Below, one piece after another: positions 1 through 57,559 of a stretch of DNA of 64,000 bases. Source of the DNA: a virus; the IMG/VR virus record IMGVR_UViG_3300034064_000912, positions 4,209 through 68,208 of that record, one strand, 5' to 3'. Numbering within the stretch: position 1 is the stretch's first letter; each line of letters starts with the position of its first letter. A program made the translations under genes and the position numbers. The notes under the pieces were generated by a model. It was not told the origin of the DNA and made no database searches. It saw only the letters and a list, made by a program, of their open reading frames with translations.

Positions 1-29
1 AAATTATTGAAGAAAAAAGACGAGGCCAC
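1..29 (-). CDS. gp14: 5' end of neck protein gp14 (runs off the window)
   Basis: GTG start giving MASSFFFNNF, typical of gp14 N-termini; AGGA SD and AATAAATA late-promoter-like box upstream; lies downstream of gp13. Confidence 0.65.
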
Positions 30-154
30 TACATATTCCTTTTTGTCTATTTATTCATTCAAAAATATGATAATATATATAGTGTGCTGTCATGCTCTTG
101 AAGCGTTTAATGATAGAGCCTGTGGGTTTTAATACCGCGACAGGCACTATCTAT

Positions 155-820
155 TTATTTAGACTTACATTTGTCATTATGATATCTTCCAATGTTACCT
201 GGATTTCCTATAAATCCACAATATTTGCATTCTATTTTCTTTTTATTTAATGAAGAAAATATACCAGCTGCAGCGATATTAGCTCTATGTTCTTCAGATA
301 AAGGAATACCGCGTCGCATTTCAGCCGATATATTAATAGCCTTTGCCCAGTTACCTTTATTCTTTCCCATCATAGACTTAGAGCGTTTGGCTCTTACTTC
401 TAAATCTGATGAGCGAGTATCTCTATTTTTTAGACTTTCTAGATAATTTTGTCTGACATCAGACCGTATCATTGCTTCTTTGGTCTTTACTGAGATCTTT
501 TGTGATATAGTCTTAATATTTTCATCATATTTGTGCCAAGTTTCATTTTGCGTAATTTTTAAGTTATAATATCTAATTTTTATCTCATCTAGTTTTATCA
601 TATTTAGATAACGTTGCTCTTCAGTATATGTTTGACGCCGATTTTCTATCTTAGTTTTAAGAATTTTCCTTTTAAAGTCTTTTGGACGTATTTTGTACGC
701 CTGCATCATCCATGTTGATGAACATATATAGCCGTCATCTTCAGTTCCCCAGTGACATCCAACATAATATCGCTTATGCTTACGATCAAACCAAATATAA
801 ACAAATCCATATTTTTCCAT
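155..820 (-). CDS. GIY-YIG (Seg-like) free-standing homing endonuclease
   Basis: GFVYIW...YYVGCHWG..DDGYICSS GIY-YIG motif; NUMOD3-like LSEEHRANI; C-terminal CxxC...H..C. Confidence 0.85.
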   Translation of the reverse strand: MEKYGFVYIWFDRKHKRYYVGCHWGTEDDGYICSSTWMMQAYKIRPKDFKRKILKTKIENRRQTYTEEQRYLNMIKLDEIKIRYYNLKITQNETWHKYDENIKTISQKISVKTKEAMIRSDVRQNYLESLKNRDTRSSDLEVRAKRSKSMMGKNKGNWAKAINISAEMRRGIPLSEEHRANIAAAGIFSSLNKKKIECKYCGFIGNPGNIGRYHNDKCKSK

Positions 821-841
821 AGAAATCTCCTTTTCTATGGT

Positions 842-849
842 TATTTATA
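842..849 (-). promoter_or_regulatory. T4-type late promoter TATAAATA for the endonuclease gene
   Basis: Exact TATAAATA on the minus strand, then an AGGAG SD, upstream of the ATG at 820. Confidence 0.7.
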
Positions 850-862
850 CAAAGTATATATT

Positions 863-1846
863 CTAGCCGATCATATCCGTAACTGGAAGTGAATATGAAT
901 AAATCATTTCTTTTTCTAGAGCTTCTCGTTCTGCAGTTGCATCATCTAAAATTTTAGCACCATTGAACATGACACCGCCGGGTAACTGCATACCGGAGAA
1001 TTTGGTGAGATTCCATCCCCACTGCTGCTTCATTAAACATGCAGCATAGCGCTGAAGCCAGCGATCTGACCATACCTTTGAATAAGTAGTTGGATCCACT
1101 ATTTGATATGCTTCTAAAATAACAAAATCTCCGGGACTAACAATACCCCAGTCCATATCAACATAACATGCATTTTTATGTCGATTATATCTGATAGGTT
1201 GTTGTCCTACTAACATTTGTTCTAAAAATTGAACATGTTGCAATGCCATATAATATGGAACCATTGAAACAGATGTTAAAGTATATAAATCATTAAGAGC
1301 AATTTGATATCTAATATTGAATAGGTTATTAGTATTCAACGCTTGACCAACGGGAAACATTGAAACAACACCAATAATATTATCTGGAATGGGAATAAAT
1401 CCGCCTTTACGCGGCTGAAGAACTGCACCCGAACCAGTAGAAGTAGTTATAGTATAACTTGGATCAGTTGATAGATGATAGGTATTACCATTTGTATATA
1501 GACTATCAACCGGAACAGAAAGAATAGTACCAGTTGTACTTGTAATTGGATTTAAATTAATTACATCTGAACCTTGTGTAATTACAATAGTATCTGAATT
1601 AGAATATCCAGTACCGCCATTTCCAACTACAACATCTGCTAAATTATATGGGTAGTTTTTAGCTTGAATTTGATACTTATAATATTGCTTGTCTGAACCA
1701 TCAAAATGATAATCGAAAAAATAACGAAGAGCTTCATCAATGCGATCATCAATTTGATCATCATCTATATTGATTTCAATAACGGGTTTGCCAAGTCTGC
1801 GTAGGCAATACTCTTTAAATGATGCTCTATCAGTTGCAATTGCCAT
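863..1846 (-). CDS. gp13: neck protein gp13, with an internal insertion
   Basis: YCLRRLGKPVIEIN.DDDQ.DDRIDEAL N-terminus and KQQWG.NLTKF.GMQLPGGV.FNG C-terminus. Confidence 0.92.
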   Translation of the reverse strand: MAIATDRASFKEYCLRRLGKPVIEINIDDDQIDDRIDEALRYFFDYHFDGSDKQYYKYQIQAKNYPYNLADVVVGNGGTGYSNSDTIVITQGSDVINLNPITSTTGTILSVPVDSLYTNGNTYHLSTDPSYTITTSTGSGAVLQPRKGGFIPIPDNIIGVVSMFPVGQALNTNNLFNIRYQIALNDLYTLTSVSMVPYYMALQHVQFLEQMLVGQQPIRYNRHKNACYVDMDWGIVSPGDFVILEAYQIVDPTTYSKVWSDRWLQRYAACLMKQQWGWNLTKFSGMQLPGGVMFNGAKILDDATAEREALEKEMIYSYSLPVTDMIG

Positions 1847-1928
1847 TTATACTCTCTTTTTCTATTATTTATCGTAAGTTTATGTTACCATAACGAGTAC
1901 GAGCTATCTCTTTTTTGATATATTTATT

Positions 1929-2630
1929 TTATTTCCATCGCGGACCGCAAAACCAATACACAAGTGTTTTTCTTGTGCCAGTTTCAACCGGTAAAACCCT
2001 GTGTGATAGAAATGATGGAAATAAAATCATAGATCCCGCATCCATTCGAATAGTATTAATGCAATTATTAGGATGATTCGGTAATATTATTTGAAAATCA
2101 CCACCGGTATATTTGTCCTGTGGTGTTAAACATAGAACAGCAGATAACTTTCTCCAACTAAGATCTCTTGGTATGCAGTTTAAACCACGACTATCTAATA
2201 CACCAAATGGTCCATCTGGATGCCAATCAAAATACATTTCTTCTTTATAAATTGTATATTGAGGAGCCATATAGTTTGAGAGTTCAAAATTAAAGATATT
2301 CTTATTAACTTCTTCTACAGTATTTACTATTCTATCTTCATATGTCTTAATAATATTTGAATCTTTAACAAAAAAAACATTTGAATTTCTGTAATTTTGA
2401 CCTATTGATTCTTTTTCATTTTTACCAACCACTGTTCCTTTTTCAGTTATATGATCATAATTTTGTAAGATATCATTTAGTTCAATAATTTCTGATTTAT
2501 TGAAAACATTTTCAATGATATAATAATAAGCATAAGTCAGATATCCACGTCTATTTTCATTAGATAATTTAATCTCATAATCTGTATAAAATTTTACATC
2601 TATAAGGTCGCGATCAATTCTTTCAATCAT
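1929..2630 (-). CDS. 2OG-Fe(II) oxygenase (PKHD/prolyl-4-hydroxylase-like)
   Basis: FDWHPD (HxD), RKLSAVL, YTGGDF, ILFPSFLSHRVLPVETGTRKTLVYW (distal His and 2OG-binding Arg). Confidence 0.9.
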   Translation of the reverse strand: MIERIDRDLIDVKFYTDYEIKLSNENRRGYLTYAYYYIIENVFNKSEIIELNDILQNYDHITEKGTVVGKNEKESIGQNYRNSNVFFVKDSNIIKTYEDRIVNTVEEVNKNIFNFELSNYMAPQYTIYKEEMYFDWHPDGPFGVLDSRGLNCIPRDLSWRKLSAVLCLTPQDKYTGGDFQIILPNHPNNCINTIRMDAGSMILFPSFLSHRVLPVETGTRKTLVYWFCGPRWK

Positions 2631-2644
2631 AATTAAAGCTTTCT

Positions 2645-2884
2645 TTATTTTGTCGGAGGCGTAGGAGGCGACACCGGCGGCGCTTCACCATATACATACC
2701 CATTAGAGCCTGGCGCTCCAGTTGGGCCTGGCGCTCCAGTTGGGCCTGGCGCTCCAGTCAGGCCTTGAGGTCCTTGATCCCCGACTAGTCCTCTAGTACC
2801 AGTTGGACCAGTTGGTATACTTGCAGATGTTTGCACAGTTGCGTCAGGAAATACTATTCCTGTAGAAGTAACCTTAGTAGGCAT
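2645..2884 (-). CDS. collagen-like mini-protein with Pro-rich tail
   Basis: [13 protein letters not shown]-terminal motif, Gly-X-Y run with (GAPGPT)x3, C-terminal [11 protein letters not shown]. Confidence 0.8.
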
Positions 2885-2890
2885 GAAATA

Positions 2891-3136
2891 TTACTTTGTT
2901 GGAGGAGTAGGAGGAGGAGGTGGAGGAGCACCAGGAGGTGCAATTGCAGGAGCTCCTTGCGGGCCAGATAAGCCACGTAGACCGGTTGGACCGCGTGGAC
3001 CAGTTGGACCTGTGAGACCCACAGAACCGGTATAGCCGGTTAGACCTATTGGACCGGTAGCACCTCTTATTTGAGCAGTTATTGCAGTAGTAGCATCTGG
3101 ATATAATATACCAGTGGTCTTAACAACAGTTGTCAT
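2891..3136 (-). CDS. collagen-like mini-protein with Pro-rich tail
   Basis: [14 protein letters not shown]-terminal motif, Gly-X-Y run, C-terminal [15 protein letters not shown]. Confidence 0.8.
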
Positions 3137-3151
3137 TTTATAACTCTTTTA

Positions 3152-3379
3152 TTATGGACACGGCGTATATGTAAATGTAGCTAAATTAAAACAAAATCCT
3201 TGTGAACCAGTATATCCAATAGAACCAGTATATCCCGTTGGTCCTGCTGCACCCCGCGAACCAGTATATCCAATAGAACCGGTATATCCAGCAGAACCAG
3301 TATAACCTACTACAGCCGCAGTAGTTTGTATTGAATTATCTGGAAATGTAATTCCAGTAAAAGTAATTTTAGTTGACAT
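3152..3379 (-). CDS. collagen-like mini-protein (GYTGSx repeats) with Cys-containing tail
   Basis: TGITFPDNSIQTTA N-terminal motif, GYTGSx repeats, C-terminal FCFNLATFTYTPCP. Confidence 0.8.
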   Translation of the reverse strand: MSTKITFTGITFPDNSIQTTAAVVGYTGSAGYTGSIGYTGSRGAAGPTGYTGSIGYTGSQGFCFNLATFTYTPCP

Positions 3380-3956
3380 CTGTGCAAATATATTTTCTTA
3401 TATACATTGGAACGTCATATGGTCTACGTAAAAGATATTTACGAAACAATTCATTCTTTGGAATCTCACCTGGATTAATTGTTTCAATTTCAATTACTTT
3501 ATATTGAGAAACGCGCGCATTTGGATTTGTATGTCGTGGCTTTAATTTAGTTTTTGTTGGATGAAAATGAGTTACTTGATATTCTGACTTATATCCAATA
3601 GATTCAAGATCTGTATAATGAAAGTTTATTAATTTAATTGAATCAGCAGGATGACCAAAATTATCTTTTATAATATTTCTTGGCCTGGTGAATATAGCAC
3701 TCGACCAAGTTGCAATATCCACAGGAAGTTCTGCCCATAGATGAATACATGAATAACAATTTAATACGCCATCATTAAAAAAACCATAATGTCTTGTATG
3801 TGTCAAATCATATGCTGCATCTGTATTTAACCAATCAGTATAGTCCGGTATTTTTACCGTTGAATTAGACATTGTAGATCTGCTTTTCATTAGATCTATA
3901 ATATCATTTGCATCAGTTTTAGTTAATAGTCTAATTTCTTCCATATTATTTCTCAT
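3369..3956 (-). CDS. hypothetical protein, possibly GNAT-fold acyltransferase (likely start 3944, MEEIRLLT)
   Basis: IRLLT..D..DIIDL ... HYGFFNDGVL..YSCIHLW resembles the GNAT beta1-alpha1 and beta2-beta3 pattern; overlaps both neighbours as in an operon. Confidence 0.5.
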   Translation of the reverse strand: MRNNMEEIRLLTKTDANDIIDLMKSRSTMSNSTVKIPDYTDWLNTDAAYDLTHTRHYGFFNDGVLNCYSCIHLWAELPVDIATWSSAIFTRPRNIIKDNFGHPADSIKLINFHYTDLESIGYKSEYQVTHFHPTKTKLKPRHTNPNARVSQYKVIEIETINPGEIPKNELFRKYLLRRPYDVPMYIRKYICTDVN

Positions 3957-6378
3957 TCTTTTTTAATTCATCAATTTCAATACTTAATTCTTTAATGGCC
4001 TCAATTAAAAGTCCTATCATATTGCCATATGTTACAGATAAATAACCATCATCATTTATTCGAACAGCTTCTGGTAAAACTTTTATAACATCTTGTGCTA
4101 TAACTCCAATTGATCTACCATCAATACCTATTTTATTAAATGATACACCTCTTAAATCTTTAACTATAGCTAATGCATTTACAATAGTAATTACATCTTT
4201 TTTTAATCTATAATCAGATGTCGAAGTTATATCACCGGCAACAGATAATGATGTAGAATTCATGAAAGTATTAACAGTTGTATTACCAATACTTATGCTG
4301 CTTGTACTAATATTAACATTAGCACCAACATTTAAAGCTGTAGTTAAATTAGCTGTTGCTGGAAGTCTAGCTGTATTTAATGTACCTGAAGTAATAGTCG
4401 TGGCATTAGCTGAAATAGTAATTGCATTAGAATAAGCTGTAGCTGCTACAGTATCTGAATATGCTCTTAGAGTAGTTGCAGTATTACCACCAACAGTGCT
4501 AGCATTAACACTAGTAATATTAACACCATTAGCTGTTATAACATTTGATACTAAATTGCCTGTTGTGCTTATAAGAGTAGAATTAACTGTCGTATTACCA
4601 GAAGTAATTAAAGATGCATTTACAACATTAAATACAGCATTAGCACCACCTACTATTGAAGTAGAATTAGCTATTAAATTAACTGTGGTATTACCAATAC
4701 TTATGCTGCTTGTACTAATATTAACATTAGCACCAACATTTAAAGCTGTAGTTAAATTAGCTGTAGCTGGAAGTCTAGCAGTATTCAATGTACCTGAAGT
4801 AATAGTCGTGGCATTAGCTGAAATGGCTACTGCATTAGAATAAGCTGTAGCTGCTAAATTAGTTGCATTAGCAACTGCATTAGCAACCGCATTTGCGAAA
4901 GCTGTAGCTGCAACAGTATCTGAATATGCTCTTAAAGTAGTTGCAGTATTGCCGCCGACTGTAGCAGAATTAACACTCGTGATTGCTGATCCAACACCAG
5001 AAAAAGATCCAGCAGTAATAAGACCTGTAAATGTTGCAGTATTACCAATTATGGTTGTGGAATTAACTGTTACATTACCTATTTTAATACTAGTTGTATT
5101 GGCAGTAACAACAGAACCAACATTTAATGCTGTAGTTAAATTAGCCGTCGCCGGAAGTCTGGCTGTATCAAGAGTGCCTGAAGAAATACTTGTGGCATTA
5201 ATTGAAGTTATTCCAGCGCCACTTCCAGAAATTGTAGTTGTAGTTAGTGCACCAATGGCTGCTGTATTTACAGAAATATTAGTAGAATTAGCTATTAAAT
5301 TAACTGTGGTATTACCAATAGACAATTGAATAGTGTTAAGACTTACATTAGAACCAATGTTTAATGCCGTAGTTAAATTAGCTGTTGCTGGAAGTCTAGC
5401 TGTATCAAGAGTACCTGAAGTAATAGTCGTGGCATTAGCTGAAATGGCTACTGCATTAGAATAAGCTGTAGCTGCTAAATTAGTTGCATTAGCAACTGCA
5501 TTAGCTACTGCATTAGAATAAGCTGTAGCTGCTACAGTATCTGAATATGCTCTAAGAGTAGTTGATGTATTACCACCAACTGTGCTGGCATTAACACTAG
5601 TGATTGCTGATCCAACACCAGAAAAAGATCCTGCAGTAATAGCGCCAGTAAATATAGCAGTATTACCAATTATAGATGTTGAATTAACTGTTACATTACC
5701 TATTTTAATACTAGTTGTATTGACAGTAGCATTAGCACCAACATTTAATGCCGTAGTTAAATTAGCTGTTGCTGGGAGTCTAGCTGTATCAAGAGTACCG
5801 GAAGAAATGCTTGTAGCGTTTATTCCAGTTATGCTTCCGCCACTTCCAGAAATTGTAGTTGTAGTCAATGTGCCAATTGTTGCACTAGATACAGAAATGT
5901 TAGTAGAATTAGCTAGTAAATTAACAGTTGTATTACCAATAGAAAACTGAGTAGTACTAAGATTTACATTGTCTCCAATATTTAATGCTGTAGTTAAATT
6001 AGCTGTTGCTGGAAGTCTAGCTGTATCAAGAGTACCTGAAGTAATAGTCGTGGCATTAGCTGAAATGGCTACTGCATTAGAATAAGCTGTAGAAGCATTG
6101 GCAGTAACTGATGAGTTTAATGCAAATGATGAAGCAGCAGTACCGCCTAAGTTAAGAGAATTATTTGCTGTACCCTGTAAAGTTGAATATATATTACCAG
6201 CAACAGTAAGATTTGCACTCATGGTAACATTACCAGAGACATTAGCAGTACCAACTACTTTAAAGCTAGCATCCGGCGTATTAGTGTTTATACCAACTAA
6301 TCCAGAAGTAGAATTTACTACTAATACTGATCCATTTACAGATATGCCATTTTTTACAACAAAATCTTTATCAGCCAT
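3946..6378 (-). CDS. tail fibre/spike with C-terminal intramolecular chaperone (Peptidase S74-like)
   Basis: MADKDFVVKNG N-terminus; six SGTL[DN]TARLP repeats; TSDYRLKKD...IGVIAQDV...V.YGNMIGLLIEAIKEL chaperone signature. Confidence 0.85.
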   Translation of the reverse strand: MADKDFVVKNGISVNGSVLVVNSTSGLVGINTNTPDASFKVVGTANVSGNVTMSANLTVAGNIYSTLQGTANNSLNLGGTAASSFALNSSVTANASTAYSNAVAISANATTITSGTLDTARLPATANLTTALNIGDNVNLSTTQFSIGNTTVNLLANSTNISVSSATIGTLTTTTISGSGGSITGINATSISSGTLDTARLPATANLTTALNVGANATVNTTSIKIGNVTVNSTSIIGNTAIFTGAITAGSFSGVGSAITSVNASTVGGNTSTTLRAYSDTVAATAYSNAVANAVANATNLAATAYSNAVAISANATTITSGTLDTARLPATANLTTALNIGSNVSLNTIQLSIGNTTVNLIANSTNISVNTAAIGALTTTTISGSGAGITSINATSISSGTLDTARLPATANLTTALNVGSVVTANTTSIKIGNVTVNSTTIIGNTATFTGLITAGSFSGVGSAITSVNSATVGGNTATTLRAYSDTVAATAFANAVANAVANATNLAATAYSNAVAISANATTITSGTLNTARLPATANLTTALNVGANVNISTSSISIGNTTVNLIANSTSIVGGANAVFNVVNASLITSGNTTVNSTLISTTGNLVSNVITANGVNITSVNASTVGGNTATTLRAYSDTVAATAYSNAITISANATTITSGTLNTARLPATANLTTALNVGANVNISTSSISIGNTTVNTFMNSTSLSVAGDITSTSDYRLKKDVITIVNALAIVKDLRGVSFNKIGIDGRSIGVIAQDVIKVLPEAVRINDDGYLSVTYGNMIGLLIEAIKELSIEIDELKKNEK
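4280..6095 (-). repeat. internal long repeats in the fibre gene
   Basis: Near-identical nucleotide blocks encoding AYSNAVAISANATTITSGTLDTARLPATANLTTALN recur, including two units of about 200 aa in tandem. Confidence 0.85.
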
Positions 6379-6409
6379 TTATCGAGTTCCCTTTCCCTCG
6401 TTTTTCTAT

Positions 6410-6417
6410 TATTTATA
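6410..6417 (-). promoter_or_regulatory. late promoter TATAAATA upstream of the fibre/collagen/oxygenase operon
   Basis: Exact consensus 32 nt upstream of the ATG at 6378. Confidence 0.75.
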
Positions 6418-6419
6418 AA

Positions 6420-8327
6420 TTATGTTATAACTGCATTCTGGTCAATATAATAAATATTAGATGTTTTAGCAGCATGTACTTTTAAGAATATAGATCCAAC
6501 CTGTCCGGCATTAAATGTAGTAGACATCTTAAATCTTGTACCGGCTGTAAATGTAGCTGTTCCATCAGTTATAACTGATCCATCTACTGCTGTAGTGTAT
6601 CCAGCCGGCTCTGCCGTATTACTTGTTCCAGCTGTAGTGCAAAAGAATATTCTACCTGGATTAGACGCAGTTTTTATAATATCATTTAAAACGTAAATAG
6701 TAGAATTAGCTCTACTAGTAACACTACTATCCCAACTAGTTGTATCAGCAGTAAGAGTAGTATTAGCAGTTATTGGATTGGCAATAGTACTAGTAACTAT
6801 AATTCCTTCTGGATTAGTGGCTGAATTAAGATAATCAGCACTAATCCAGATTTCATCATTATTTGGTCTTGATGTAGAATTAAATATTCCATAAACTGTT
6901 ATTGTATTAGAAGTACCAGTTGATGTATTCCAGACTGTCCATGGTAATGTTTCAAATGGATCAAACCATGATGAAAAAGCAGTTGTAGTTATTTTTTTAC
7001 TTACAAGACCAATATTATCCCGTGATCCACCAGTACGTACTACAGATCTGTCTTGTACTGAATAGCCTTTTCTATCATATTTTTCATTTCTTGGTATGCC
7101 AGATGCAACTCCAGAATTTACTAAAATAGTAGTCATATTAGTATTTGATGTAGAAGATGCATCAACTGTAACTGATGATCCAAGACGTACTCTTTTCATT
7201 ACTAAACGCGCACTTAAAACACTATCACCAACAATCGTTGTTCCTGATGTAAGTGCCGATAAATCTACATTTTCAAGTAAAATATCGCCATTTATACCCG
7301 ATGAACTAGTAGAAGCAATAGATCTAAATAATGTTGTTGGAAATACAGTTCCTGTTATAGCAGATGGCGTATTTTTCCAAATTAATCTTGTACCACGCGA
7401 ACGTATTAGTGCTGATTGTGAAGTAGAATTAAATTGCATCGATGTATTAGAAAGCACAATTCTGGCACTAGTTATTGTTGGGCTAGTAGTAATAAAATTT
7501 ATAGCTGATGTTACGGCTGTACTTCCAACTTGCAACTTACAAGACTCAAGAATATTTAAACTATTAAATGATGTAGTACTTCCTACATTGAGGAACGCAC
7601 TACCAGCCCCAGTACCAGTTGAAAAAGTAATACCATAGTAGTATGCAGATCCATAAAGTACTAAATTGCTAGTACCAGTTGCATTAATAGTAGCTGTAGT
7701 AGCAGCAACTCCCGAAGTTCTATTTATACATATTACACGTACTAAACTAGACGGAGTACCAGGCGATGTTAATGATATACTAGAAATTTCAGCTTGTGCA
7801 TAATCATGTGCTACATAAATAGTATCACCAGCGGCCACTCCACCATTTACACCATATGCATATGTTAATGTTGTATATGCATTAGTCCAACTTGTTCCTA
7901 CCGTTGAAATTGGATCAGCTGTAAATACAGCAGTACCATCAGTTATTACACTGCCATCAGTGGCAGTGGCATATGTAGTAGGTAAGGCAGTATTACTAGT
8001 ACCAGCAGTAGTACATGTAAAAGTTCTACTATTAGTGCCTGCTCCGACTAATATAACGGATACTGCGCCAGTTGTATTGCTGTATGCTGTAGAATTGACA
8101 CGGGTTAATAATATAATATCAGCTGTAAAAACTGCTGTACCGTCAGTTATAGTATTGCCATAAACTGCAGTTGCATATCCGGCTGGTTGTGAACTAGCAG
8201 TAGTGCCAGCTGTAGTACAAATAAAACGTCTTCCGGTAGTTCCACCCGTAACTGTAATTACAGAATTCAATTGATAAGATGTAGAATTAGCTCTTGCTGT
8301 CGGTGCATATACATATTTAATGGCCAT
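6420..8327 (-). CDS. putative virion adhesin/receptor-binding protein, paralog A (three CBM-like modules)
   Basis: Three RANST.Y...F.CTTAGT...GY.TA..G..ITDGTA.FTA modules; Ser/Thr-rich beta-type core; paralog of the next ORF. Confidence 0.6.
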   Translation of the reverse strand: MAIKYVYAPTARANSTSYQLNSVITVTGGTTGRRFICTTAGTTASSQPAGYATAVYGNTITDGTAVFTADIILLTRVNSTAYSNTTGAVSVILVGAGTNSRTFTCTTAGTSNTALPTTYATATDGSVITDGTAVFTADPISTVGTSWTNAYTTLTYAYGVNGGVAAGDTIYVAHDYAQAEISSISLTSPGTPSSLVRVICINRTSGVAATTATINATGTSNLVLYGSAYYYGITFSTGTGAGSAFLNVGSTTSFNSLNILESCKLQVGSTAVTSAINFITTSPTITSARIVLSNTSMQFNSTSQSALIRSRGTRLIWKNTPSAITGTVFPTTLFRSIASTSSSGINGDILLENVDLSALTSGTTIVGDSVLSARLVMKRVRLGSSVTVDASSTSNTNMTTILVNSGVASGIPRNEKYDRKGYSVQDRSVVRTGGSRDNIGLVSKKITTTAFSSWFDPFETLPWTVWNTSTGTSNTITVYGIFNSTSRPNNDEIWISADYLNSATNPEGIIVTSTIANPITANTTLTADTTSWDSSVTSRANSTIYVLNDIIKTASNPGRIFFCTTAGTSNTAEPAGYTTAVDGSVITDGTATFTAGTRFKMSTTFNAGQVGSIFLKVHAAKTSNIYYIDQNAVIT

Positions 8328-8338
8328 TATAATTATTC

Positions 8339-9838
8339 CTACGTTATAACTGCATTCTGGTCAATATAATACGTATTAGATGCTTTAGCAGCATGTACTT
8401 TTAAGAATATAGATCCAACCTGTCCGGCATTAAATGTAGTAGACATCTTAAACCGCATGCCAGCAGTAAATGTAGCTGTTCCATCAGTTATTACTGATCC
8501 GTCTACTGCTGTAGTGTATCCAGCTGGTTCTGCCGTATTACTTGTTCCAGCTGTAGTGCAAAAGAATATTCTACCAGAATTATTTGATGTTTTTACAATG
8601 TCATTTAAAGCATAAACTGTTGAGTTAATTCTTGCAGTAATAGCGTTGTCCCATGATGAAGTATCAGCTAAAAGAGTAGTATTAGATGTTAATAGATCTG
8701 CAGCAATAGTACCAGAAGACATTACTCCATTTGGATTAGTGGCTGAATTGAGATAATCAGCACTAATCCAGATTTCATCATTATTTGGACGTACGGTAGA
8801 ATTAAATATTCCATAAACTGTTATTGTATTAGAAGTACCAGTTGATGTATTCCAGACTGTCCATGGCAGCGTCTCATGTGGATTAAACCACTCAGGAAAA
8901 GCAGTTGTAGTTATTTTTTTACTTACAAGACCAATATTGTCACGTGATCCACCAGTACGTACTACAGATCTGTCTTGAACAGATGTTCCCATTTTATCAT
9001 ATTTTTCGTGTCGCGGTATACCGCTAGTCGTACTGCATCCAAGTAAAAATATTCGTTGAGTACTATTTGCCTGTACACCCGAAGTAATAGTAACTGATGA
9101 TCCAAGACGCGCTCTTTTTAATACAATTTTATTAGCAAGTGATGCTACATCTTGAAATAAAGTAGTAGATGATCCCATAGCTGAAAGATCAACATCTTCT
9201 ATCAAAAATGTTGCAGCAATTGTAGATACACTTATTGGCTTAATAAATGTTGTAGGTATATTATTAGCAATAGCCGATGGTGTATTTTTCCAAATTACAT
9301 CAGCACCACGTAATGCAATTCCTTGTCCAGCATTTCCAAATAAAAGTTGAGTATTACTAAGAGTTACTGTTAAACTAGTTCGGTCAAGTGCATAAAATTG
9401 TAAAACTGAAGTAGCTAAAGTAGAATTAATACTAAGTTTGCATGATTCGAATATTTGTATTGCACTTATATCAGTAGTCGCAGTTGCTGATTGAATAGTA
9501 GTAGATCCGCCAGATGTTCCTTGTCTAAAAGAAATTCCATAATAATACGCAGATCCAAGTAAAGTTAAACCTGCGTTGCCAGTTACAGTAATAGTAGCTG
9601 TAGTAGCAGCAACTCCCGAAGTTCTATTTATACATATTACACGTACTAAACTAGACGGAGTACCAGGCGATGTTAATGTTAAAGCACCAGCTGAAGTTTG
9701 TGCATGATCATGCGCTACATAAATAGTATCACCAGCAACTACTCCTGCATATGCTAATGTTAATGTTGTATAAGCATTAGTCCAATCATCACCTGTTCCA
9801 GTACCGACTGCTCCTGAATATAAGTATTTAATGGCCAT
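8339..9838 (-). CDS. putative virion adhesin/receptor-binding protein, paralog B
   Basis: GTGDDWTNAYTTL...AGDTIYVAHDH N-terminus (beta-helix-like start); C-terminal third nearly identical to paralog A. Confidence 0.6.
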   Translation of the reverse strand: MAIKYLYSGAVGTGTGDDWTNAYTTLTLAYAGVVAGDTIYVAHDHAQTSAGALTLTSPGTPSSLVRVICINRTSGVAATTATITVTGNAGLTLLGSAYYYGISFRQGTSGGSTTIQSATATTDISAIQIFESCKLSINSTLATSVLQFYALDRTSLTVTLSNTQLLFGNAGQGIALRGADVIWKNTPSAIANNIPTTFIKPISVSTIAATFLIEDVDLSAMGSSTTLFQDVASLANKIVLKRARLGSSVTITSGVQANSTQRIFLLGCSTTSGIPRHEKYDKMGTSVQDRSVVRTGGSRDNIGLVSKKITTTAFPEWFNPHETLPWTVWNTSTGTSNTITVYGIFNSTVRPNNDEIWISADYLNSATNPNGVMSSGTIAADLLTSNTTLLADTSSWDNAITARINSTVYALNDIVKTSNNSGRIFFCTTAGTSNTAEPAGYTTAVDGSVITDGTATFTAGMRFKMSTTFNAGQVGSIFLKVHAAKASNTYYIDQNAVIT

Positions 9839-10026
9839 TATTCATTTTCTCTACAAAGATCAGCAGATCTGATAGCAATAATATTTGGTAAATCTATATC
9901 TGAATTTATTAATGTATCATATGTAAATACTATATCATCAGATCTTGTGTAAATTTGTTTTAACCAATATGATCCATCTGGTTGCTTATCATGCACAATT
10001 GTTTCTATGTTTACTATTGAAAGCAT
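9838..10026 (-). CDS. hypothetical protein
   Basis: 62-aa ORF coupled to both neighbours by TAATG overlaps. Confidence 0.65.
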   Translation of the reverse strand: MLSIVNIETIVHDKQPDGSYWLKQIYTRSDDIVFTYDTLINSDIDLPNIIAIRSADLCRENE

Positions 10027-10355
10027 TATATGATAAACTCAGTATTTAGATTATATGGATAAGATCCGGTGTAACCAATTACACCCTGTGATCCAACAAA
10101 GCCAACTGAACCTGTAAAGCCAACTGAACCTGTAAAGCCAACTGAACCAACAAAACCAACTGAACCAGTATAACCAGTTGAACCGGTAAAGCCAACTGAA
10201 CCAGTGTAACCGCGTGATCCAGTATAACCAACTGCGGCATAAGCTCCTGAAGATCCAGTATAGCCGGTAGATCCTGTATAACCAAGTGATCCGGTATAGC
10301 CGCGCGAACCAGTATAGCCCGGTTCACCCTGTCTAAGTGAAGATTTTATTAGCAT
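10026..10355 (-). CDS. collagen-like protein, G[YF]TGSx hexapeptide repeats
   Basis: About 14 G[YF][TV]GSx units; GGAG SD; TATAAATA at 10380-10387. Confidence 0.8.
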   Translation of the reverse strand: MLIKSSLRQGEPGYTGSRGYTGSLGYTGSTGYTGSSGAYAAVGYTGSRGYTGSVGFTGSTGYTGSVGFVGSVGFTGSVGFTGSVGFVGSQGVIGYTGSYPYNLNTEFII

Positions 10356-10379
10356 TAGTGCTCCAATATACTGTTATTA

Positions 10380-10387
10380 TATTTATA
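10380..10387 (-). promoter_or_regulatory. late promoter TATAAATA
   Basis: Exact consensus upstream of the ATG at 10355. Confidence 0.7.
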
Positions 10388-10393
10388 TTATTT

Positions 10394-10781
10394 TTACATA
10401 AGCATAAAGAAGTTACCAGCAGAAGCGCCTGGTACTGGTGGAGCAGTAAATATCCAACCAGTATTATTACCGCCATCTGTGCTGTTTGCACCAGCATACC
10501 ATCCTGCACCAACTGAACCTGTATAACCTGTTGATCCAACCGAACCAGTGAATCCAGTAGTACCAGCAGAACCTGTAAAGCCAGCACCAACTGAACCGGT
10601 GAATCCTATATCACCAACCGAACCAGTGAATCCAGTAGTACCAGCAGAACCAGTGAAGCCAATTGCTGCATGCGCCAATAGAACCAGTATAACCACGCGA
10701 ACCAGTATAACCAATACCACCTTGTCTAAGTGTTGATTTAATAACAGATCCAGTATAACTGCCAGTAGATCGCGTAAGCAT
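10394..10781 (-). pseudogene. frameshifted collagen-like G[YF]TGSx protein (paralog of 10026..10355)
   Basis: ATG at 10781 after GGAG gives MLTRSTGSYTGSVIKSTLRQGGIGYTGSRGYTGSIGA; frame breaks near 10670 (GCATGCA where the paralog's GAYAA predicts GCATATGCA); collagen repeats continue in the other frame to 10394. Confidence 0.75.
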
Positions 10782-10822
10782 TAATGCTCCAGTATATTAT
10801 TATATGCATATACAAAGAATTA

Positions 10823-10844
10823 TATTTATATTTATATATAAATA
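10823..10844. promoter_or_regulatory. divergent late-promoter cluster
   Basis: TATAAATA on minus at 10823-10830 and 10829-10836, and on plus at 10837-10844. Confidence 0.75.
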
Positions 10845-10862
10845 AATGATCAATATTAAATT

Positions 10863-13800
10863 ATGCATTATTTTATAGGATTATATATTATGATATCTAT
10901 AGCAATTATTGACACAATAGGTTTAGTATATGATGGTTCTACATTATCTAAAAGAGGTTTAGGTGGTTCAGAATCAGCAGTAATTCTTATGTCAAGAGAG
11001 TTAACAAAACTCGGATTTGATGTAACTGTTTATAATAATTGTGAAGACTCAATAACTAAACCTGGTATATATGATGGTGTTAAATATAAACCATTTAAAG
11101 AATGTAAAAACTATACTCATGATGTTGTCATATCATCCAGAACAGTTTTACCATTATGTCCAGAACAATATTACAAAAATTTTACAAATACACCAGCAAC
11201 TTTTGAAACATTTCAAAATGTTCATAAAGCAAAACTTAAAATTCTATGGCTACATGATACTTTTTGCGTTGGTGATCAACTTATTGAAGAGTTAGTACTC
11301 AGTGGTTATATTGATGAACTTTTTACTCTTTCTGATTTTCATACTTCATATGTAACAAACTGTGATCATGGAAATAAAAGAAATTTTGAAGTATTGAAAA
11401 ACAAAATATTTATGACACGTAATGGTGTTATGAATCATCACAAATGGGTAGATATTAAAGCTAAAGATCCAAATTTATTTGTATATAATGCATCAGTTAC
11501 TAAAGGTATGATTCCATTAGTAACAAAAATTTGGCCAGAATTAAAAAAGAAAATACCAAATGGGCGTCTTATTATAATTGGTGGATTTTATAGATTCAGG
11601 GATACTGCACCACCAGATAAACAAGAAGAAGATTGGCATATTCTAAGAAAAGAATATGAAAGTATGAATATAGGTATTAGCTTTACTGGAATTATTCCGC
11701 AACATGAAATAGCTGACATATTATCAAGAGCAGCATATTTTCTATATCCTGGAGCATTTCCAGAAACGTTTGGAATATCGATGCTAGAATCAATGGTTTA
11801 TAATACTCCTCTCATTACTTGCAGATTCGGTGCTACTGAAGAAACGGCAATAGAACAAGCAAATTATCTTATTGATTATGCTATTGAACCAAATAGCTTA
11901 TTTCCAAATATTAATACAGATTCACAATGTGCTAAATTTATTGATATTACTTATCAAGCTTATAATAATACGTATTTGCATCAACAGAAAATGTATGCTT
12001 GTAATTTAGTAAAAGACATAGCTGAATGGAATACTGTAGCTTTACAGTGGAAACAACATATATTTAAAAAGCTTGGCGTCTATATGGATATTAATGAATA
12101 TAGATCTGTACAAGTTATTAATGATAGAGTTCATAAAGTATTTGGCAGAAAATTTTCTAATAGTGAAGAATGGCGAATTAGAAAAACTAAAGAACAAGAA
12201 ATTGTAGTAATAACACCTTTTTATAATGCTAGAAATTATATTGAAGAATGCATAGATTCCATAGCAGCACAAGACTATGATAATTGGAAACTAATTCTTA
12301 TTGATGATGCTTCAACTGATGATTCATTTGATGTTGCTAAAAACTATATTGCAACTTTTCCAAAAAATATTCAAAATAAAATTAATATACATCAAAATGC
12401 TAGAAATGTTGGCGCGGTGTGTAATCAAGTTACTACTCTTAAAAGTATTGATACCAGCATAACTGCTGATTCTATAATAATGTTTGTAGATGGTGATGAT
12501 TGTTTAGCTAATGATCCACATATATTTGATATGTATAATAATATGTTTCATGATGGAATTGAGTTTTCATATGGATCATGTTGGTCAATGGCTGATAATA
12601 TTCCACTTATAGCTCAACCATATCCACCAGAAGTCAAGAAAAATAAGTCTTATAGACAATACAAATTTAATTGGGGAATGCCATATACTCATCTTCGTGT
12701 ATTTAAAAAATATCTAATTGACCAAATTCCATATTCTTCTTTTCAGGATGCTGATGGTAATTGGTTTAAAGCAGGTGGAGATAATTCTACTTTCTATAAT
12801 ATTCTTGAAAAAGCTGATCCTAATAAAGTAAAAGCAGTATCAGATATAGTATATCTTTATAATGACAAAAATCCAATAAATGATTATAAGGTGAATTCAG
12901 AGGAGCAAACTAAAAATATGGAACAAGTGACTAATTCTAAAGCATATGTCTATAATCCAAAAAAGATTTTAATTGCTATTCCAACCGCCAAGTACATAGA
13001 ATCAGAAACATTCAAATCAATATATGATCTTGAAGTACCCATGGGTTATGAAACAGATTTTCAATTTTTCTATGGTTATAATATAGATCAAATTAGAAAT
13101 TTAATTGCAGATTGGGCACAAAAATACGATTATCTTTTTTCTGTTGATTCTGATATAGTAATGTCATCAGATACTCTTAAAAAGTTAATAGAGCATAATA
13201 AAGATATAGTAACTGGAATGTATATACAACGAATACCTGGAACACATGCTTTAGAATTATATGATAAAAATGGTAGAATTCCATATAATTTAATTAAAGG
13301 TAAAGGGCTTTTAGAAATTGATGCATGTGGATTTGGTTGCGTTCTTGTAAAAAGCGAAGTATTTAAAGTTGTTGGTTATCCACAGTTTGAATATCATTCA
13401 GCATTAAATCATAGAGATACTATTTCAGAAGATACTGATTTCTGTTTAAAGGCTAAAAATAAAGGCTTTAAGATATGGGTTGATACTAGTATTAAATGCA
13501 ATCATATAGGAAATGTGTGGTTTAACGTAGAAGATAATCAAGAAACCGAAACAGAAGAAAAGACTAAATTAAGAAATCTTGGTAATGAAAATTTGCTGCC
13601 ATTTGATCATATTATGTATCTTGCTTCAATGAAAAAAACAAATATAATTCCAGAAGTTATATATGATATAGGCGCGTGTGTATTACATTGGCATAAAGAA
13701 GCTGCAAAAATCTGGAATAATTCAAAATACTTTATATTTGAAGCAATGCATGAATCATCTTTCTTATATGAAGAAAAACAACTTCCATACCACTGTGGTG

Positions 13801-14225
13801 TTTTAACTGACTATGATAATAAAATAGTAGATTTTTATCAAAATACAGAGCATCCTGGTGGAAATTCATATTATTTAGAAAATCCAGATGTAAATCCAGA
13901 AGCGCATGATTATTTCAATGAATCACATCGTAGAAAAAAAGTAGGTATGAAGCTAGATACTATAGTAAAACAGAAGTCTTGGCCATTGCCTAATATGATT
14001 AAAATGGATATTCAAGGAGCTGAATTAGATGTATTAAAAGGAGCTGATATGTGTCTTAATCATGCCACAGATCTTATTCTTGAATTACAACATACAGAAT
14101 ATAATAAAAACGCGCCATCTGCTAAAGAAGTAATTGAGTACTTAAAAGAAAAAGGGTTTCAGTTAATTACTAAATTCACTGAAACCCCGTATGATGGCGA
14201 CTATCATTTTAGGAAAGTTATCTAG
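10863..14225 (+). CDS. multidomain glycosyltransferase-methyltransferase: GT4-like + GT2 + GT2-like + FkbM-type SAM methyltransferase (likely start 10890)
   Basis: GLGGSESA...WLHD...YPGAFPETFGISMLE (GT-B); IVVITPFYNA...IDDASTD...VDGDD (GT-A); ILIAIPT...VDSDIV...GFGCVLVK...SEDTDFC (GT-A); IYDIGAC...IKMDIQGAELDVLKG (FkbM). Confidence 0.9.
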   Translation: MHYFIGLYIMISIAIIDTIGLVYDGSTLSKRGLGGSESAVILMSRELTKLGFDVTVYNNCEDSITKPGIYDGVKYKPFKECKNYTHDVVISSRTVLPLCPEQYYKNFTNTPATFETFQNVHKAKLKILWLHDTFCVGDQLIEELVLSGYIDELFTLSDFHTSYVTNCDHGNKRNFEVLKNKIFMTRNGVMNHHKWVDIKAKDPNLFVYNASVTKGMIPLVTKIWPELKKKIPNGRLIIIGGFYRFRDTAPPDKQEEDWHILRKEYESMNIGISFTGIIPQHEIADILSRAAYFLYPGAFPETFGISMLESMVYNTPLITCRFGATEETAIEQANYLIDYAIEPNSLFPNINTDSQCAKFIDITYQAYNNTYLHQQKMYACNLVKDIAEWNTVALQWKQHIFKKLGVYMDINEYRSVQVINDRVHKVFGRKFSNSEEWRIRKTKEQEIVVITPFYNARNYIEECIDSIAAQDYDNWKLILIDDASTDDSFDVAKNYIATFPKNIQNKINIHQNARNVGAVCNQVTTLKSIDTSITADSIIMFVDGDDCLANDPHIFDMYNNMFHDGIEFSYGSCWSMADNIPLIAQPYPPEVKKNKSYRQYKFNWGMPYTHLRVFKKYLIDQIPYSSFQDADGNWFKAGGDNSTFYNILEKADPNKVKAVSDIVYLYNDKNPINDYKVNSEEQTKNMEQVTNSKAYVYNPKKILIAIPTAKYIESETFKSIYDLEVPMGYETDFQFFYGYNIDQIRNLIADWAQKYDYLFSVDSDIVMSSDTLKKLIEHNKDIVTGMYIQRIPGTHALELYDKNGRIPYNLIKGKGLLEIDACGFGCVLVKSEVFKVVGYPQFEYHSALNHRDTISEDTDFCLKAKNKGFKIWVDTSIKCNHIGNVWFNVEDNQETETEEKTKLRNLGNENLLPFDHIMYLASMKKTNIIPEVIYDIGACVLHWHKEAAKIWNNSKYFIFEAMHESSFLYEEKQLPYHCGVLTDYDNKIVDFYQNTEHPGGNSYYLENPDVNPEAHDYFNESHRRKKVGMKLDTIVKQKSWPLPNMIKMDIQGAELDVLKGADMCLNHATDLILELQHTEYNKNAPSAKEVIEYLKEKGFQLITKFTETPYDGDYHFRKVI

Positions 14226-14556
14226 TAACTCTCGGTGTTACTGTAACTATTCCTTCTAATACACGCGTAATAATATTTTCATTATTAATTATTGTTACAT
14301 CATATACATATCTGCCATAATCTAAATTTGCTGTTTGCTCAGCAGTTAATGATAATCTAATAACACCATTAGATGGTTCTATAGCAGTATTAGTAGCAAA
14401 TACTGCTGAAGGATTAACTGAGCTATACCATTTTCTCATCTGAGCATTAGCAACATAAGGTGACACATCAATGGGATCACCATTTTCATCAGTTAAATCA
14501 ATATATAAATCAAATGTAGTTCCTTGATCTATTACAAGATTGCTTTTATTAGACAT
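14218..14556 (-). CDS. small virion structural protein (Ig/BppU-like)
   Basis: NLVIDQGTTF...AQMRK...LSLTAEQT..L..GRYVYDV...RVLEGIVTVTP.VTR motif common in T4-like phages. Confidence 0.75.
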   Translation of the reverse strand: MSNKSNLVIDQGTTFDLYIDLTDENGDPIDVSPYVANAQMRKWYSSVNPSAVFATNTAIEPSNGVIRLSLTAEQTANLDYGRYVYDVTIINNENIITRVLEGIVTVTPRVTR

Positions 14557-57296: not shown

Positions 57297-57537
57297 TTTT
57301 TTCCGACGCCCAATTTACAGTAACCCAATCATCAATACAATGTTCTCTTAAAGCTTTCATAATAGTCTGTTTTGCATTACTAGCATTTGGACTATGATAC
57401 GCTATAATCATTTTATGAAACCAATAATCCCAATATTGCTCAATAATTTGATCTTCAGTTATTTCTTTTATACTATTTACGTCAGATATATTACTGTTAT
57501 CAATATCGATATATTCGTTATAAACATATGTTTTCAT
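57283..57537 (-). CDS. hypothetical protein
   Basis: EDQII.QYWDYW...CIDDWVTVNWA small phage family; between nrdA and nrdB. Confidence 0.65.
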   Translation of the reverse strand: MKTYVYNEYIDIDNSNISDVNSIKEITEDQIIEQYWDYWFHKMIIAYHSPNASNAKQTIMKALREHCIDDWVTVNWASEKNECI

Positions 57538-57559
57538 ATTTTTATCTTTGGTTAAATTT

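Follow-up and report, generated by a model that had tools for sequence, protein, structure and literature searches.

A 64,000-nucleotide (nt) stretch of DNA from a T4-like myophage of lake water (positions 4,209 to 68,208 of the IMG/VR virus record IMGVR_UViG_3300034064_000912; hereafter, the window) holds a five-gene cassette at 1929-3956, in which three collagen-like chains with stalks of equal length are encoded together with a 2-oxoglutarate (2OG)-Fe(II) oxygenase and a protein with a GNAT fold. The arrangement recurs in several distant phage lineages, and it suggests that there are tailed phages which hydroxylate collagen-like fibres of their own making. We place the probability that the oxygenase indeed modifies the collagen-like chains at roughly one half; the location of the chains in the virion, their co-assembly, and the substrate and chemistry of the enzyme are what we infer from gene neighborhoods, conservation and structure predictions. 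The genes of the cassette are, in their order on the minus strand (lengths in amino acids, aa):

3369-3956, minus strand: GNAT-fold protein, 195 aa (191 aa if it starts at 3944)
3152-3379, minus strand: collagen-like chain A, 75 aa; connector motif, 13 G-X-Y triplets and a tail ending in ..GFCFNLATFTYTPCP
2891-3136, minus strand: collagen-like chain B, 81 aa; N-terminal motif of the Y-P-D type, 13 triplets and a Pro-rich tail
2645-2884, minus strand: collagen-like chain C, 79 aa; N-terminal motif of the ..QTSA..TG type, 13 triplets and a Pro-rich tail
1929-2630, minus strand: 2OG-Fe(II) oxygenase, 233 aa, of the prolyl-hydroxylase/PKHD branch

The module and its genomic slot

As the initial annotation of this DNA had it, these are five co-oriented and tightly packed open reading frames (ORFs) on the minus strand behind a tail-fibre gene: the stop of the fibre gene overlaps the start of the 195-aa ORF, this ORF overlaps the gene for chain A by 11 nt, and the remaining intergenic gaps measure 15, 6 and 14 nt. 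The late-promoter motif that it had placed near 6410 is also there:

6410-6417, minus strand: TATAAATA, resembling a T4-type late promoter and lying 31 nt ahead of the fibre start

There is no other copy of TATAAATA between 6410 and 1929, and none within the cassette; hence, the six downstream genes probably form one late transcript. The window as a whole has 16 copies of the motif against 20.7 expected, a count that is not above chance, and 11 of the 16 sit 1-47 nt upstream of an ORF start on the same strand, as T4-type late promoters would.

Along the minus strand, several fibre-type genes are followed by the gene for an 810-aa fibre, the five-gene cassette, a gp13-type neck gene and a homing endonuclease gene, and, past the window start, by ORFs in the order of the T4 genes 14, 15, 16 and 17 (names given by position and by the same order in annotated relatives). 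Compared with the order 12-wac-13-14-15-16-17 in the T4 record, this succession of fibre, cassette and gp13 places the cassette in the slot of fibritin (wac). The virion whiskers proposed in the initial annotation find their genomic position borne out by this fit between the fibre genes and gene 13, while the presence of the products on the virion itself is presumptive. Judged by its gene content, the cassette is a structural fibre module in the wac slot and not a cluster for a ribosomally synthesized and post-translationally modified peptide (RiPP).

Coupling of the oxygenase to chain C

Loci related to the cassette were fetched via the oxygenase, and the collagen-like chains were sorted across them into three orthologous types. 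A chain-C gene directly precedes each of the 21 oxygenase ORFs that score at least 300 bits against a profile of the orthologs. This set consists of the window and 20 locus copies and comprises about 11 distinct sequences, which fall into four lineages with 42-50% identity to the enzyme of the window, the redundancy arising from the presence of the window type in three further contigs, from L005 and L016 being one contig in two collections, and from L006-L011 sharing one protein. The gap between chain C and the oxygenase is 13-91 nt and usually 13-14 nt, negative values arising only where the longest-ORF call starts too early. The layout is repeated in a further locus (L022), up to an oxygenase truncated where the contig stops, and L012, which is without upstream sequence, is hence uninformative. 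Ten paralogous oxygenase ORFs with lower scores lie further downstream in these or similar loci, and in no case does a collagen gene directly precede them, although three of them have less than 200 nt of upstream sequence.

This junction is constant despite changes on both of its sides. The chain order is A-B-C in the window, L006-L011/L021 and L019/L020, and B-A-C in L005/L018. After the oxygenase comes gp13 in the window and in L006-L011/L021 (two lineages), and one or two more oxygenases in L015/L018/L019/L020, with L020 also coding for GNAT-fold proteins, a DUF7936 protein and an endolysin. The G+C content of the loci runs from 33% to 50%, and their hosts therefore probably differ.

A triad of collagen chains was also recovered independently of the enzyme: in a search for triads without an oxygenase, scans with the N-terminal motifs mostly gave large fibre proteins, and the one new triad among the matches listed was L056, retrieved via the N-terminus of chain C. 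This triad is more distant than the four lineages above. Behind a fibre gene, L056 has the three collagen chains and two more ORFs, after which comes an oxygenase of 202 aa that scores 77 bits, ends in WYRGPQWR and lies within 2 kb of the triad. Thus, the genetic coupling of Pro-bearing collagen proteins to an oxygenase that the initial annotation had proposed is seen both in the 21 of 21 junctions and in L056.

Certain details of these and other loci are recorded here in their own right. At 1354-3323 of L056, two of the collagen chains end in a Hint-like domain (C-G-C-F-L-D-G-T) and one in an S74-type segment, and a neighboring 312-aa protein may hold another Hint-like part; these assignments were read from the sequence and not from a domain search. 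At 5001-6684 of L048/L050, a 174-aa protein combines the connector motif with a collar-type domain; some 600 nt downstream of it lies a 2OG oxygenase of 184 aa (E 1e-7 to 5e-9 with the ortholog profile), and the module ends in lysis genes. The record of the Pelagibacter phage HTVC008M shows, at 56808-59681 and divergent to gp13, four annotated 2OG-Fe(II) oxygenases plus an annotated ferrochelatase that is oxygenase-like in sequence, with collagen genes absent. The phage Melnitz has neither oxygenases beside gp13 nor a triad.

The three collagen-like chains

Each of the three chains, which had been correctly described as 75-81-aa paralogs with a common N-terminal motif and a Gly-X-Y run, begins with a motif of 24-25 residues (consensus M-x-T-K-I-T-x-S-G-I-x-F-x-D-x-T-x-Q-T-T-A), continues with exactly 13 uninterrupted G-X-Y triplets and closes with a short tail of its own. 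Against the Pfam Collagen model PF01391 (cut-off 27.2 bits), chains A, B and C score 29.7, 26.9 (just under) and 32.8 bits, respectively. The chains give only Collagen matches in Pfam and matches to collagen-type fibres in PHROGs, with no Pfam fibritin match in any of the three.

The sorting across loci marks A, B and C as ancient paralogs with distinct N- and C-terminal signatures. The A type ends in G-[LFQ]-C...P-C-P, and in L017/L019/L020 it runs on into an S74-type chaperone segment (S-D-R-R-L-K...) where the chain A of the window stops. In the B type, the N-terminal motif is of the Y-P-D form, and the chain closes with a Pro-rich tail or with nothing more than G-P-N-G. The C type shows, in three of the four lineages, a Q-T-S-A-x-x-x-T-G variant of this motif, and its tail follows the pattern G-Y-x-[IV]-x-x-(C)-P-P-P...[TG]-K. 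In the window, both B and C have Pro-rich tails with a terminal Thr-Lys.

Within the collagen runs, Pro is almost always in the X position, with Thr or Gln in Y, and Y-position Pro numbers 0-4 per chain. Sites of the X-Pro-Gly kind (GAPG), which the initial annotation had offered as the substrate, are for this reason not a conserved feature. What is constant is the Pro-rich tail of chain C, with 1-14 Pro in 12 of 12 loci, and chain B often has such a tail as well.

The window has a second collagen-like gene at 10394-10781 (minus strand), with GYTGS/GFTGS repeats and a different N-terminus (ML..S..IKSTLRQG). It is split into the overlapping ORFs 10611-10781 and 10394-10720, with the frame change near 10665-10690, and could represent two genes, a pseudogene or a programmed frameshift. 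A contig from an independent metagenome (run X3, 10622-11000) matches it without gaps, and in two runs a 1-nt deletion and a 1-nt insertion at 10696/10699 compensate each other. Its paralog at 10026-10355 is intact, and TATAAATA is found upstream of both. An 889-aa protein at 14556-17225 with a Drf_FH1 match was considered as a second Pro-rich substrate and rejected, being a Thr/Ser/Asn repeat without proline runs.

The oxygenase

The enzyme matches PF13640 (2OG-FeII_Oxy_3) with E 9.4e-12 and 46.2 bits against a cut-off of 27, and also phrog_61. Of its 37 homologs in metagenome protein collections, 34 are 44-100% identical to it and 36 have PF13640 in the precomputed Pfam column. Members of this family bind iron through an HxD...H triad and hold the C5 carboxylate of 2OG with a basic residue; an alignment of 29 family members shows no exception at the corresponding H137, D139, H210 and R220, and the HxD...H...R signature reported earlier is indeed intact. 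The C-terminus WFCGPRW is conserved, its G-P-R-W being invariant in the same alignment. The loop at 140-160 has many invariant or nearly invariant columns and is nonetheless modelled at low confidence (predicted local distance difference test, pLDDT, ~60), for which reason it might be read as a mobile lid that binds the substrate.

The AlphaFold2 model as a whole (pLDDT 84.0; predicted template-modelling score, pTM, 0.78) retrieves with Foldseek the PKHD proteins 3dkq and PiuC first, and next PHD2, a Dictyostelium PHD, the Pseudomonas putida prolyl 4-hydroxylase (P4H) bound to EF-Tu and the chlorovirus collagen prolyl hydroxylase (vCPH) 5c5t, which ranks 33rd with E 7.4e-9 and template-modelling (TM) scores of 0.55/0.69. 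The Foldseek probability is 1.00 for 3dkq, PiuC, PHD2, the P. putida P4H and vCPH, with TM scores of 0.55-0.75. A profile of the 29 orthologs searched against PDB sequences gives E 4e-10 for 3dkq and ~9e-8 for PiuC, and insignificant values for prolyl 3-hydroxylase 1 (E 0.061) and a Chlamydomonas P4H (E 0.085), so that PKHD is far closer. At the same time, the window oxygenase stays below the cut-offs of all the NCBIfam PKHD equivalogs NF003972-NF003975 (best NF003974, 60.6 versus 143 bits; the YbiX model NF003972, 24.8 versus 399 bits). There is a weak NCBIfam match to the peptide-maturing 2OG oxygenase YhhC (E 0.049), far below its cut-off.

Taken together, the PF13640 match, the PDB profile and Foldseek agree with the earlier placement of the enzyme in a prolyl-hydroxylase-like branch: its sequence and predicted fold are those of a protein-hydroxylase-type enzyme of the prolyl-hydroxylase/PKHD branch that is not demonstrably a collagen P4H. 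A search of one genome each from 185,579 bacterial and archaeal species gave no member of the family. Distant homologs, all below 60% identity, are present in 351 phage records, where the annotations at or beside the matches listed are mostly helicase (uvsW) and uvsY and not fibre genes.

What the oxygenase may act on

In the mechanism that we favor, the cassette would be a late-expressed structural module between the fibre genes and the gp13 neck gene. It would furnish three paralogous fibre chains, each with a connector, a 13-triplet stalk and its own tail, that come together in one mixed triple helix or form matched fibres, and the Fe(II)/2OG enzyme encoded behind chain C would be dedicated to hydroxylating these chains before or during assembly. 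The likeliest targets would be the prolines of the Pro-rich C-terminal tails, the collagen helix itself being less likely, in the manner of the algal, plant and chlorovirus P4Hs on poly-Pro, sequences on which these enzymes are known to act. Two features of the chains bear on this choice: the rarity of Y-position Pro means that helix-stabilising hydroxylation of X-Pro-Gly is not a conserved theme, and the constancy of the Pro-rich tail of chain C beside the enzyme gene favors hydroxylation of tail prolines. The Lys of the terminal T-K or the X-position Pro are possible alternative targets.

Several observations weigh against the modification of the chains by this enzyme. The solved structures nearest to it by both sequence and fold are PKHD/PiuC and not collagen P4Hs, and a literature search gave no substrate for PiuC or YbiX. 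Canonical X-Pro-Gly sites are few, with Y-position Pro down to zero in chain C of L014, L022, L009 and L021, and the terminal Lys is missing from chain C of L006-L011. Fibre proteins with the connector motif and collagen runs are usually without an oxygenase within 4-5 kb: one set of 23 loci has an oxygenase near a motif-bearing fibre gene only in L048/L050, and a second set of 25 loci only in L056, apart from a weak 23-bit match in L064-L069. The Pelagibacter phage HTVC008M (L027) has four 2OG oxygenases beside gp13 and no collagen triad, and therefore the gp13 border may simply collect such genes. More generally, adjacency in the syntenic structural modules of phages can be inherited without a functional link, and no fused collagen-oxygenase protein was seen among the longer proteins, which is weak evidence. 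As for the GNAT-fold protein, its gene is absent from the sequenced flanks of L006-L011/L021, and its acetyl-CoA loop is not canonical, reading K97-D-N-F-G101-H-P-A-D-S in the window.

An alternative counts the oxygenase among the many phage 2OG-Fe(II) enzymes whose target would lie elsewhere, for instance in a small molecule, in a different protein of the virion or in a host protein such as a ribosomal protein or translation factor. Its place next to the collagen genes would then reflect no more than gene order inherited at a border that gathers accessory genes, and the chains would be unmodified fibres. This alternative draws on the nearness to PKHD/PiuC, on the oxygenases of HTVC008M and on the rarity of Y-position Pro, and further on the distant homologs in 351 phage records, whose listed neighbors are mostly uvsW/uvsY, and on the statement in the excerpts of PMC3368898 that phage and bacterial collagens do without hydroxyproline (Hyp). 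However, the 21 of 21 adjacency, with its typical spacing of 13-14 nt, survives changes of chain order and of neighbors; paralogous oxygenases of the very same loci lack such an adjacency to chain C; and the independently found L056 again has an oxygenase in its module. Moreover, as the family was not found in the bacterial and archaeal genomes searched, the enzyme is not a borrowed host housekeeping enzyme. Hence, while this alternative deserves to be taken seriously, we consider it rather unlikely.

Matched stalk lengths and possible co-assembly of the chains

The collagen run ranges from 18 to 364 residues between phages and is near-equal within any one phage, chain B of L018 excepted. The spans of chains A/B/C, in residues, are:

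Window: 39/39/39
L005: 72/72/75
L006-L011 and L021: 355/364/351
L014: 45/chain B not on the contig/45
L018: 54/75/57
L017: 29/chain B not scored by the script/29
L019: 29/30/29
L022: 29/chain B not scored/29
L020: 21/18/21
L056 (the separately found triad): 39/36/36

The difference between A and C never exceeds 4 residues, which only 1 of the 5040 permutations of the seven distinct A-C pairs achieves, with the proviso that related loci are not independent of one another. The lengths also shift among members of a single lineage (72, 54 and 45; in a second lineage, 29 and 21), A and C changing together each time. As the DNA of the collagen parts is only 51-57% identical between paralogs in the window and 51-58% in L009, recent gene conversion does not explain the equal lengths in these two; it may be their source in the GPT-rich lineages, where the sequences are 60-75% identical. 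Thus, the co-variation of stalk lengths between phages indicates chains built to fit one another, and the simplest reading would be that they assemble into a common structure or next to each other.

A joint fold prediction of the three chains scored 0.46 versus 0.02 for the best control, its runs agreeing in at least 98% of the contacts with a partner pLDDT of at least 80. Of 78 solved complexes, 51 reach the mark used for such predictions, as do 2 of 108 mismatched pairs; with scores of 0.60 or below, the mark is reached by only 5 of the 78 solved complexes and by all four of the mismatches that passed, of 180. The prediction does not tell a mixed trimer from homotrimers, and its score may stem from collagen helices that the model has learned; accordingly read, it would lend weak support to an association of the three chains.

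An A-B-C heterotrimer is thus possible. In its favor are the three ancient paralogs kept side by side and the co-variation of their stalk lengths. Against it are the length of chain B in L018, which is out of step with A and C, and the confinement of the S74 domain to chain A in one lineage, this chaperone domain being one that works as a homotrimer. The more elaborate proposal of a heterotrimeric A-B-C neck whisker or short fibre, with Pro-rich ends hydroxylated by the phage enzyme and Thr-rich Y positions perhaps O-glycosylated through the glycosyltransferase encoded at 10863, is one that we entertain only tentatively and hold to be improbable in its entirety.

A trio of a different composition was noticed in L081, where 3525-4950 codes for three tandem 157-aa paralogs with the connector motif and a collar-type domain in place of collagen; here, too, small fibre proteins come in threes of matched length, but they are of another kind.

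Fibre subunits versus peptide precursors or remnants

The initial annotation had regarded the layout as RiPP-like. On such a reading, the mini-proteins would be precursors bearing a leader, and the oxygenase and the GNAT enzyme would tailor them into small modified peptides and not into fibre subunits. While the small size of the ORFs (75-81 aa), their common N-terminal motif, their variable C-terminal parts, the two adjoining enzyme genes and the faint resemblance of the oxygenase to YhhC might bring such a system to mind, the wider family speaks otherwise. The same three chains are 388-405 aa long in L006-L011 and L021; chain A carries an S74 segment in L017/L019/L020, and two of the L056 chains carry Hint-like domains. 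The supposed leader is a connector: among the matches listed in the motif scans, it occurs inside fibre proteins of 386-1738 aa, often right before a collagen run or other fibre segment, and also at the start of small "collar"-type proteins. On this evidence, we take the chains for fibre subunits and not for peptide precursors. In addition, the ORF list, Pfam and PHROG gave no sign in the cassette of a leader peptidase, a transporter or a protein with a recognition element, and the cassette stands within a virion structural module behind a late-promoter-like motif. We accordingly abandon the RiPP-like reading as very improbable.

It is just as improbable that the three short ORFs are decayed, non-functional remnants of a larger collagen-like fibre gene with accidentally equal lengths: the window chains are indeed much shorter than their orthologs in L006-L011/L021, chain A lacks the chaperone domain of some orthologs, and the other collagen-like gene of the window is split by a frame change, but short and intact triads of matched lengths recur in several lineages (L005, L014, L018, L019, L020, L022 and L056) with conserved chain-specific signatures at both ends, the cassette genes have operon-like spacing or overlaps, and four independent metagenome runs present the cassette with 0-1 differences and no listed indels.

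The GNAT-fold protein and the glycosyltransferase

The 195-aa ORF has no Pfam, PHROG or NCBIfam match. The phage family to which it belongs grew from 2 sequences in a word-based search to 75 sequence clusters in an exhaustive profile search, and none of 60 members matches a Pfam GNAT family (E up to 0.01) or any PHROG. However, all 12 listed matches of the family profile in the PDB are GNAT acetyltransferases (best E 1.5e-4), and the AlphaFold2 model (pLDDT 94.4, pTM 0.89) retrieves with Foldseek, among the matches listed, GNAT acetyltransferases throughout (TM 0.51-0.70). Hence, the label "GNAT-like" of the initial annotation is right at the level of the fold. GNAT acetyltransferases bind the pyrophosphate of acetyl-CoA with a Q/R-x-x-G-x-G/A loop between strand 4 and helix 3, and at this loop only a Lys and one Gly recur in the family consensus.

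Relatives of 20-28% identity lie downstream of the oxygenase paralogs in L020, L023, L024 and L025. The link between the two families rests on loci found through the oxygenase, which are a biased sample, and independent scans with alignments of the GNAT-fold family returned only the window's own contigs. The protein might accordingly be an accessory that travels with the oxygenase clusters in some lineages.

A potential enzyme for further tailoring is encoded elsewhere in the virion module:

10863-14225, plus strand: 1120-aa protein with GT4, GT2, an Anp1-like region and an FkbM methyltransferase domain

Its gene is divergent within the module and has its own TATAAATA 18 nt upstream. The product is a candidate enzyme for the glycosylation of the virion or its fibres, its tie to the cassette being the shared module alone. 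The GPT repeats of the BclA type are glycosylated on Thr, and by analogy the Thr-rich Y positions of the chains described here would suit O-glycosylation.

Genomic context and occurrence

The window makes up 64 kb of a single 68.2-kb contig with a G+C content of ~33%, and it contains the structural module of the phage. The genes that frame the cassette are:

3946-6378, minus strand: tail-fibre protein, 810 aa, repetitive, with a C-terminal Peptidase_S74 intramolecular chaperone domain (PF13884, E 5.9e-14)
863-1846, minus strand: T4 gp13-type neck protein, 327 aa (phrog_211), the context gene that places the cassette
155-820, minus strand: homing endonuclease between the gp13- and gp14-like genes (phrog_314)

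The gp13-type gene matches "neck protein" genes in 1758 phage records, T4-like coliphages among them. Its product is 327 aa in the window and 246 aa in L006-L011/L021, and several phage homologs align with it in two pieces covering 74-82% of its length, which suggests an inserted segment around residues 70-150 of the window protein. The endonuclease gene is present in the window and in L006-L011 and absent from the same site in the closely related L021, a polymorphism that is typical of mobile endonucleases. Beyond the fibre gene, 6420-8327 and 8339-9838 (minus strand) code for paralogs of 635 and 499 aa, which both start with MAIKY.., have nearly identical C-terminal thirds and no Pfam match, and are probably receptor-binding or fibre proteins.

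With respect to a phage collection, neither a megablast search with 1-8000 of the window nor tblastn searches with the 195-aa GNAT-fold protein and chain C gave a match; the nearest relative has proteins 74-76% identical (P0002 and P0004), encoded on contigs of about 57.8 kb. In metagenomes, 24 runs from 24 coded studies contain part of 1800-11000, and 10 of these contain at least half of the sampled words; no RNA run is listed among them. The four independent runs in whose contigs the cassette was recovered are all from lake water, and the cassette has two variants, namely 2779 C>T, which by codon reading changes Asp36 of chain C to Asn, and 3516 C>T.

Relationship to known systems and significance

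The closest parallel from a virus is vCPH of the chlorovirus PBCV-1 (5c5t), a virally encoded 2OG-Fe(II) enzyme of the prolyl-hydroxylase fold whose genome also codes for Pro-rich repeats. Pro/Lys-rich repeat peptides are reported to be substrates of vCPH in a 1999 study by Eriksson et al., which PMC9301287 cites, and the Pro-rich ...TPPTK tails of the window chains resemble them. Unlike in our case, vCPH belongs to a giant eukaryotic virus and not to a tailed phage, and it gives no significant sequence match to the window oxygenase; further, the putative substrates are here three dedicated fibre chains encoded immediately upstream. Mimivirus, according to the excerpts of PMC8968730 (see also PMC9546862), codes for collagen-like proteins together with hydroxylating and glycosylating enzymes (L230 and related proteins). 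There, the documented modifications are lysyl hydroxylation and glycosylation by homologs of animal enzymes, whereas the window, from a bacteriophage, has a PKHD/prolyl-hydroxylase-like enzyme and chains in which Lys is scarce (one terminal Lys).

Among cellular proteins, the PKHD hydroxylases (YbiX, PiuC and Sbal_3634; 3dkq, 9ghl, 9qn0-4) share the PF13640 core and the HxD...H...R signature and are closest by sequence (profile E 4e-10 to ~1e-7) and fold, but the window family has its own conserved loop and WFCGPRW C-terminus and was not found in bacterial genomes. T4 fibritin shares the genomic slot and, as we would expect for the window proteins too, is a thin trimer-forming fibre with an N-terminal attachment part. 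It is a single 487-aa coiled-coil chain that forms a homotrimer with a C-terminal foldon, whereas the cassette, known here from its genes, has three collagen-type chains of 75-81 aa and is at most a positional analogue. Scl1/2, BclA and the E. coli prophage EPclPs likewise have G-X-Y runs and function as fibres or filaments. The Pro-in-X and Thr- or Gln-in-Y pattern of the window chains is also that given for bacterial and prophage collagen-like proteins in the excerpts of PMC3368898, which further describe bacterial and phage collagens as having neither Hyp nor enzymes for making it; homotrimers without Hyp are likewise how the excerpts of PMC8968730 and PMC3368898 present bacterial and viral collagens. 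Unlike any of these, the cassette codes for three distinct length-matched chains together with a hydroxylase-type enzyme.

The viral use of prolyl 4-hydroxylase "remains cryptic" in the words of the excerpts of PMC9301287. In the literature outside subscription journals, a search brought up neither a collagen-hydroxylase module of tailed phages nor phage collagens made of three chains, in keeping with the initial annotation, which knew of no characterized system of this kind in tailed phages. Hence, the enzyme class and the idea of collagen tailoring by (giant) viruses are already known; what is new is the tailed-phage setting, the conserved three-chain design with matched lengths, and the fixed pairing of chain C with the oxygenase.

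The genomes of ocean and lake phages are full of genes for 2OG-Fe(II) oxygenases or "prolyl 4-hydroxylases" of unexplained role, and the module described here offers a concrete and testable enzyme-substrate pairing in tailed phages, with one oxygenase subfamily always found behind a Pro-tailed collagen-like chain. The three short chains, matched to a helix of 39 residues, are a possible minimal system for the study of chain selection and register in collagen. Confirmation of hydroxylation would add the post-translational tailoring of virion fibres to the structural strategies of phages, and a compact prolyl hydroxylase from a bacterial system would be at hand with its own cognate substrates. 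If both the heterotrimer and the hydroxylation were true, these chains would constitute the first heterotrimeric collagen and the first Hyp-bearing virion protein described for a prokaryotic virus, and would contradict the published view of prokaryotic collagens as homotrimers without Hyp.

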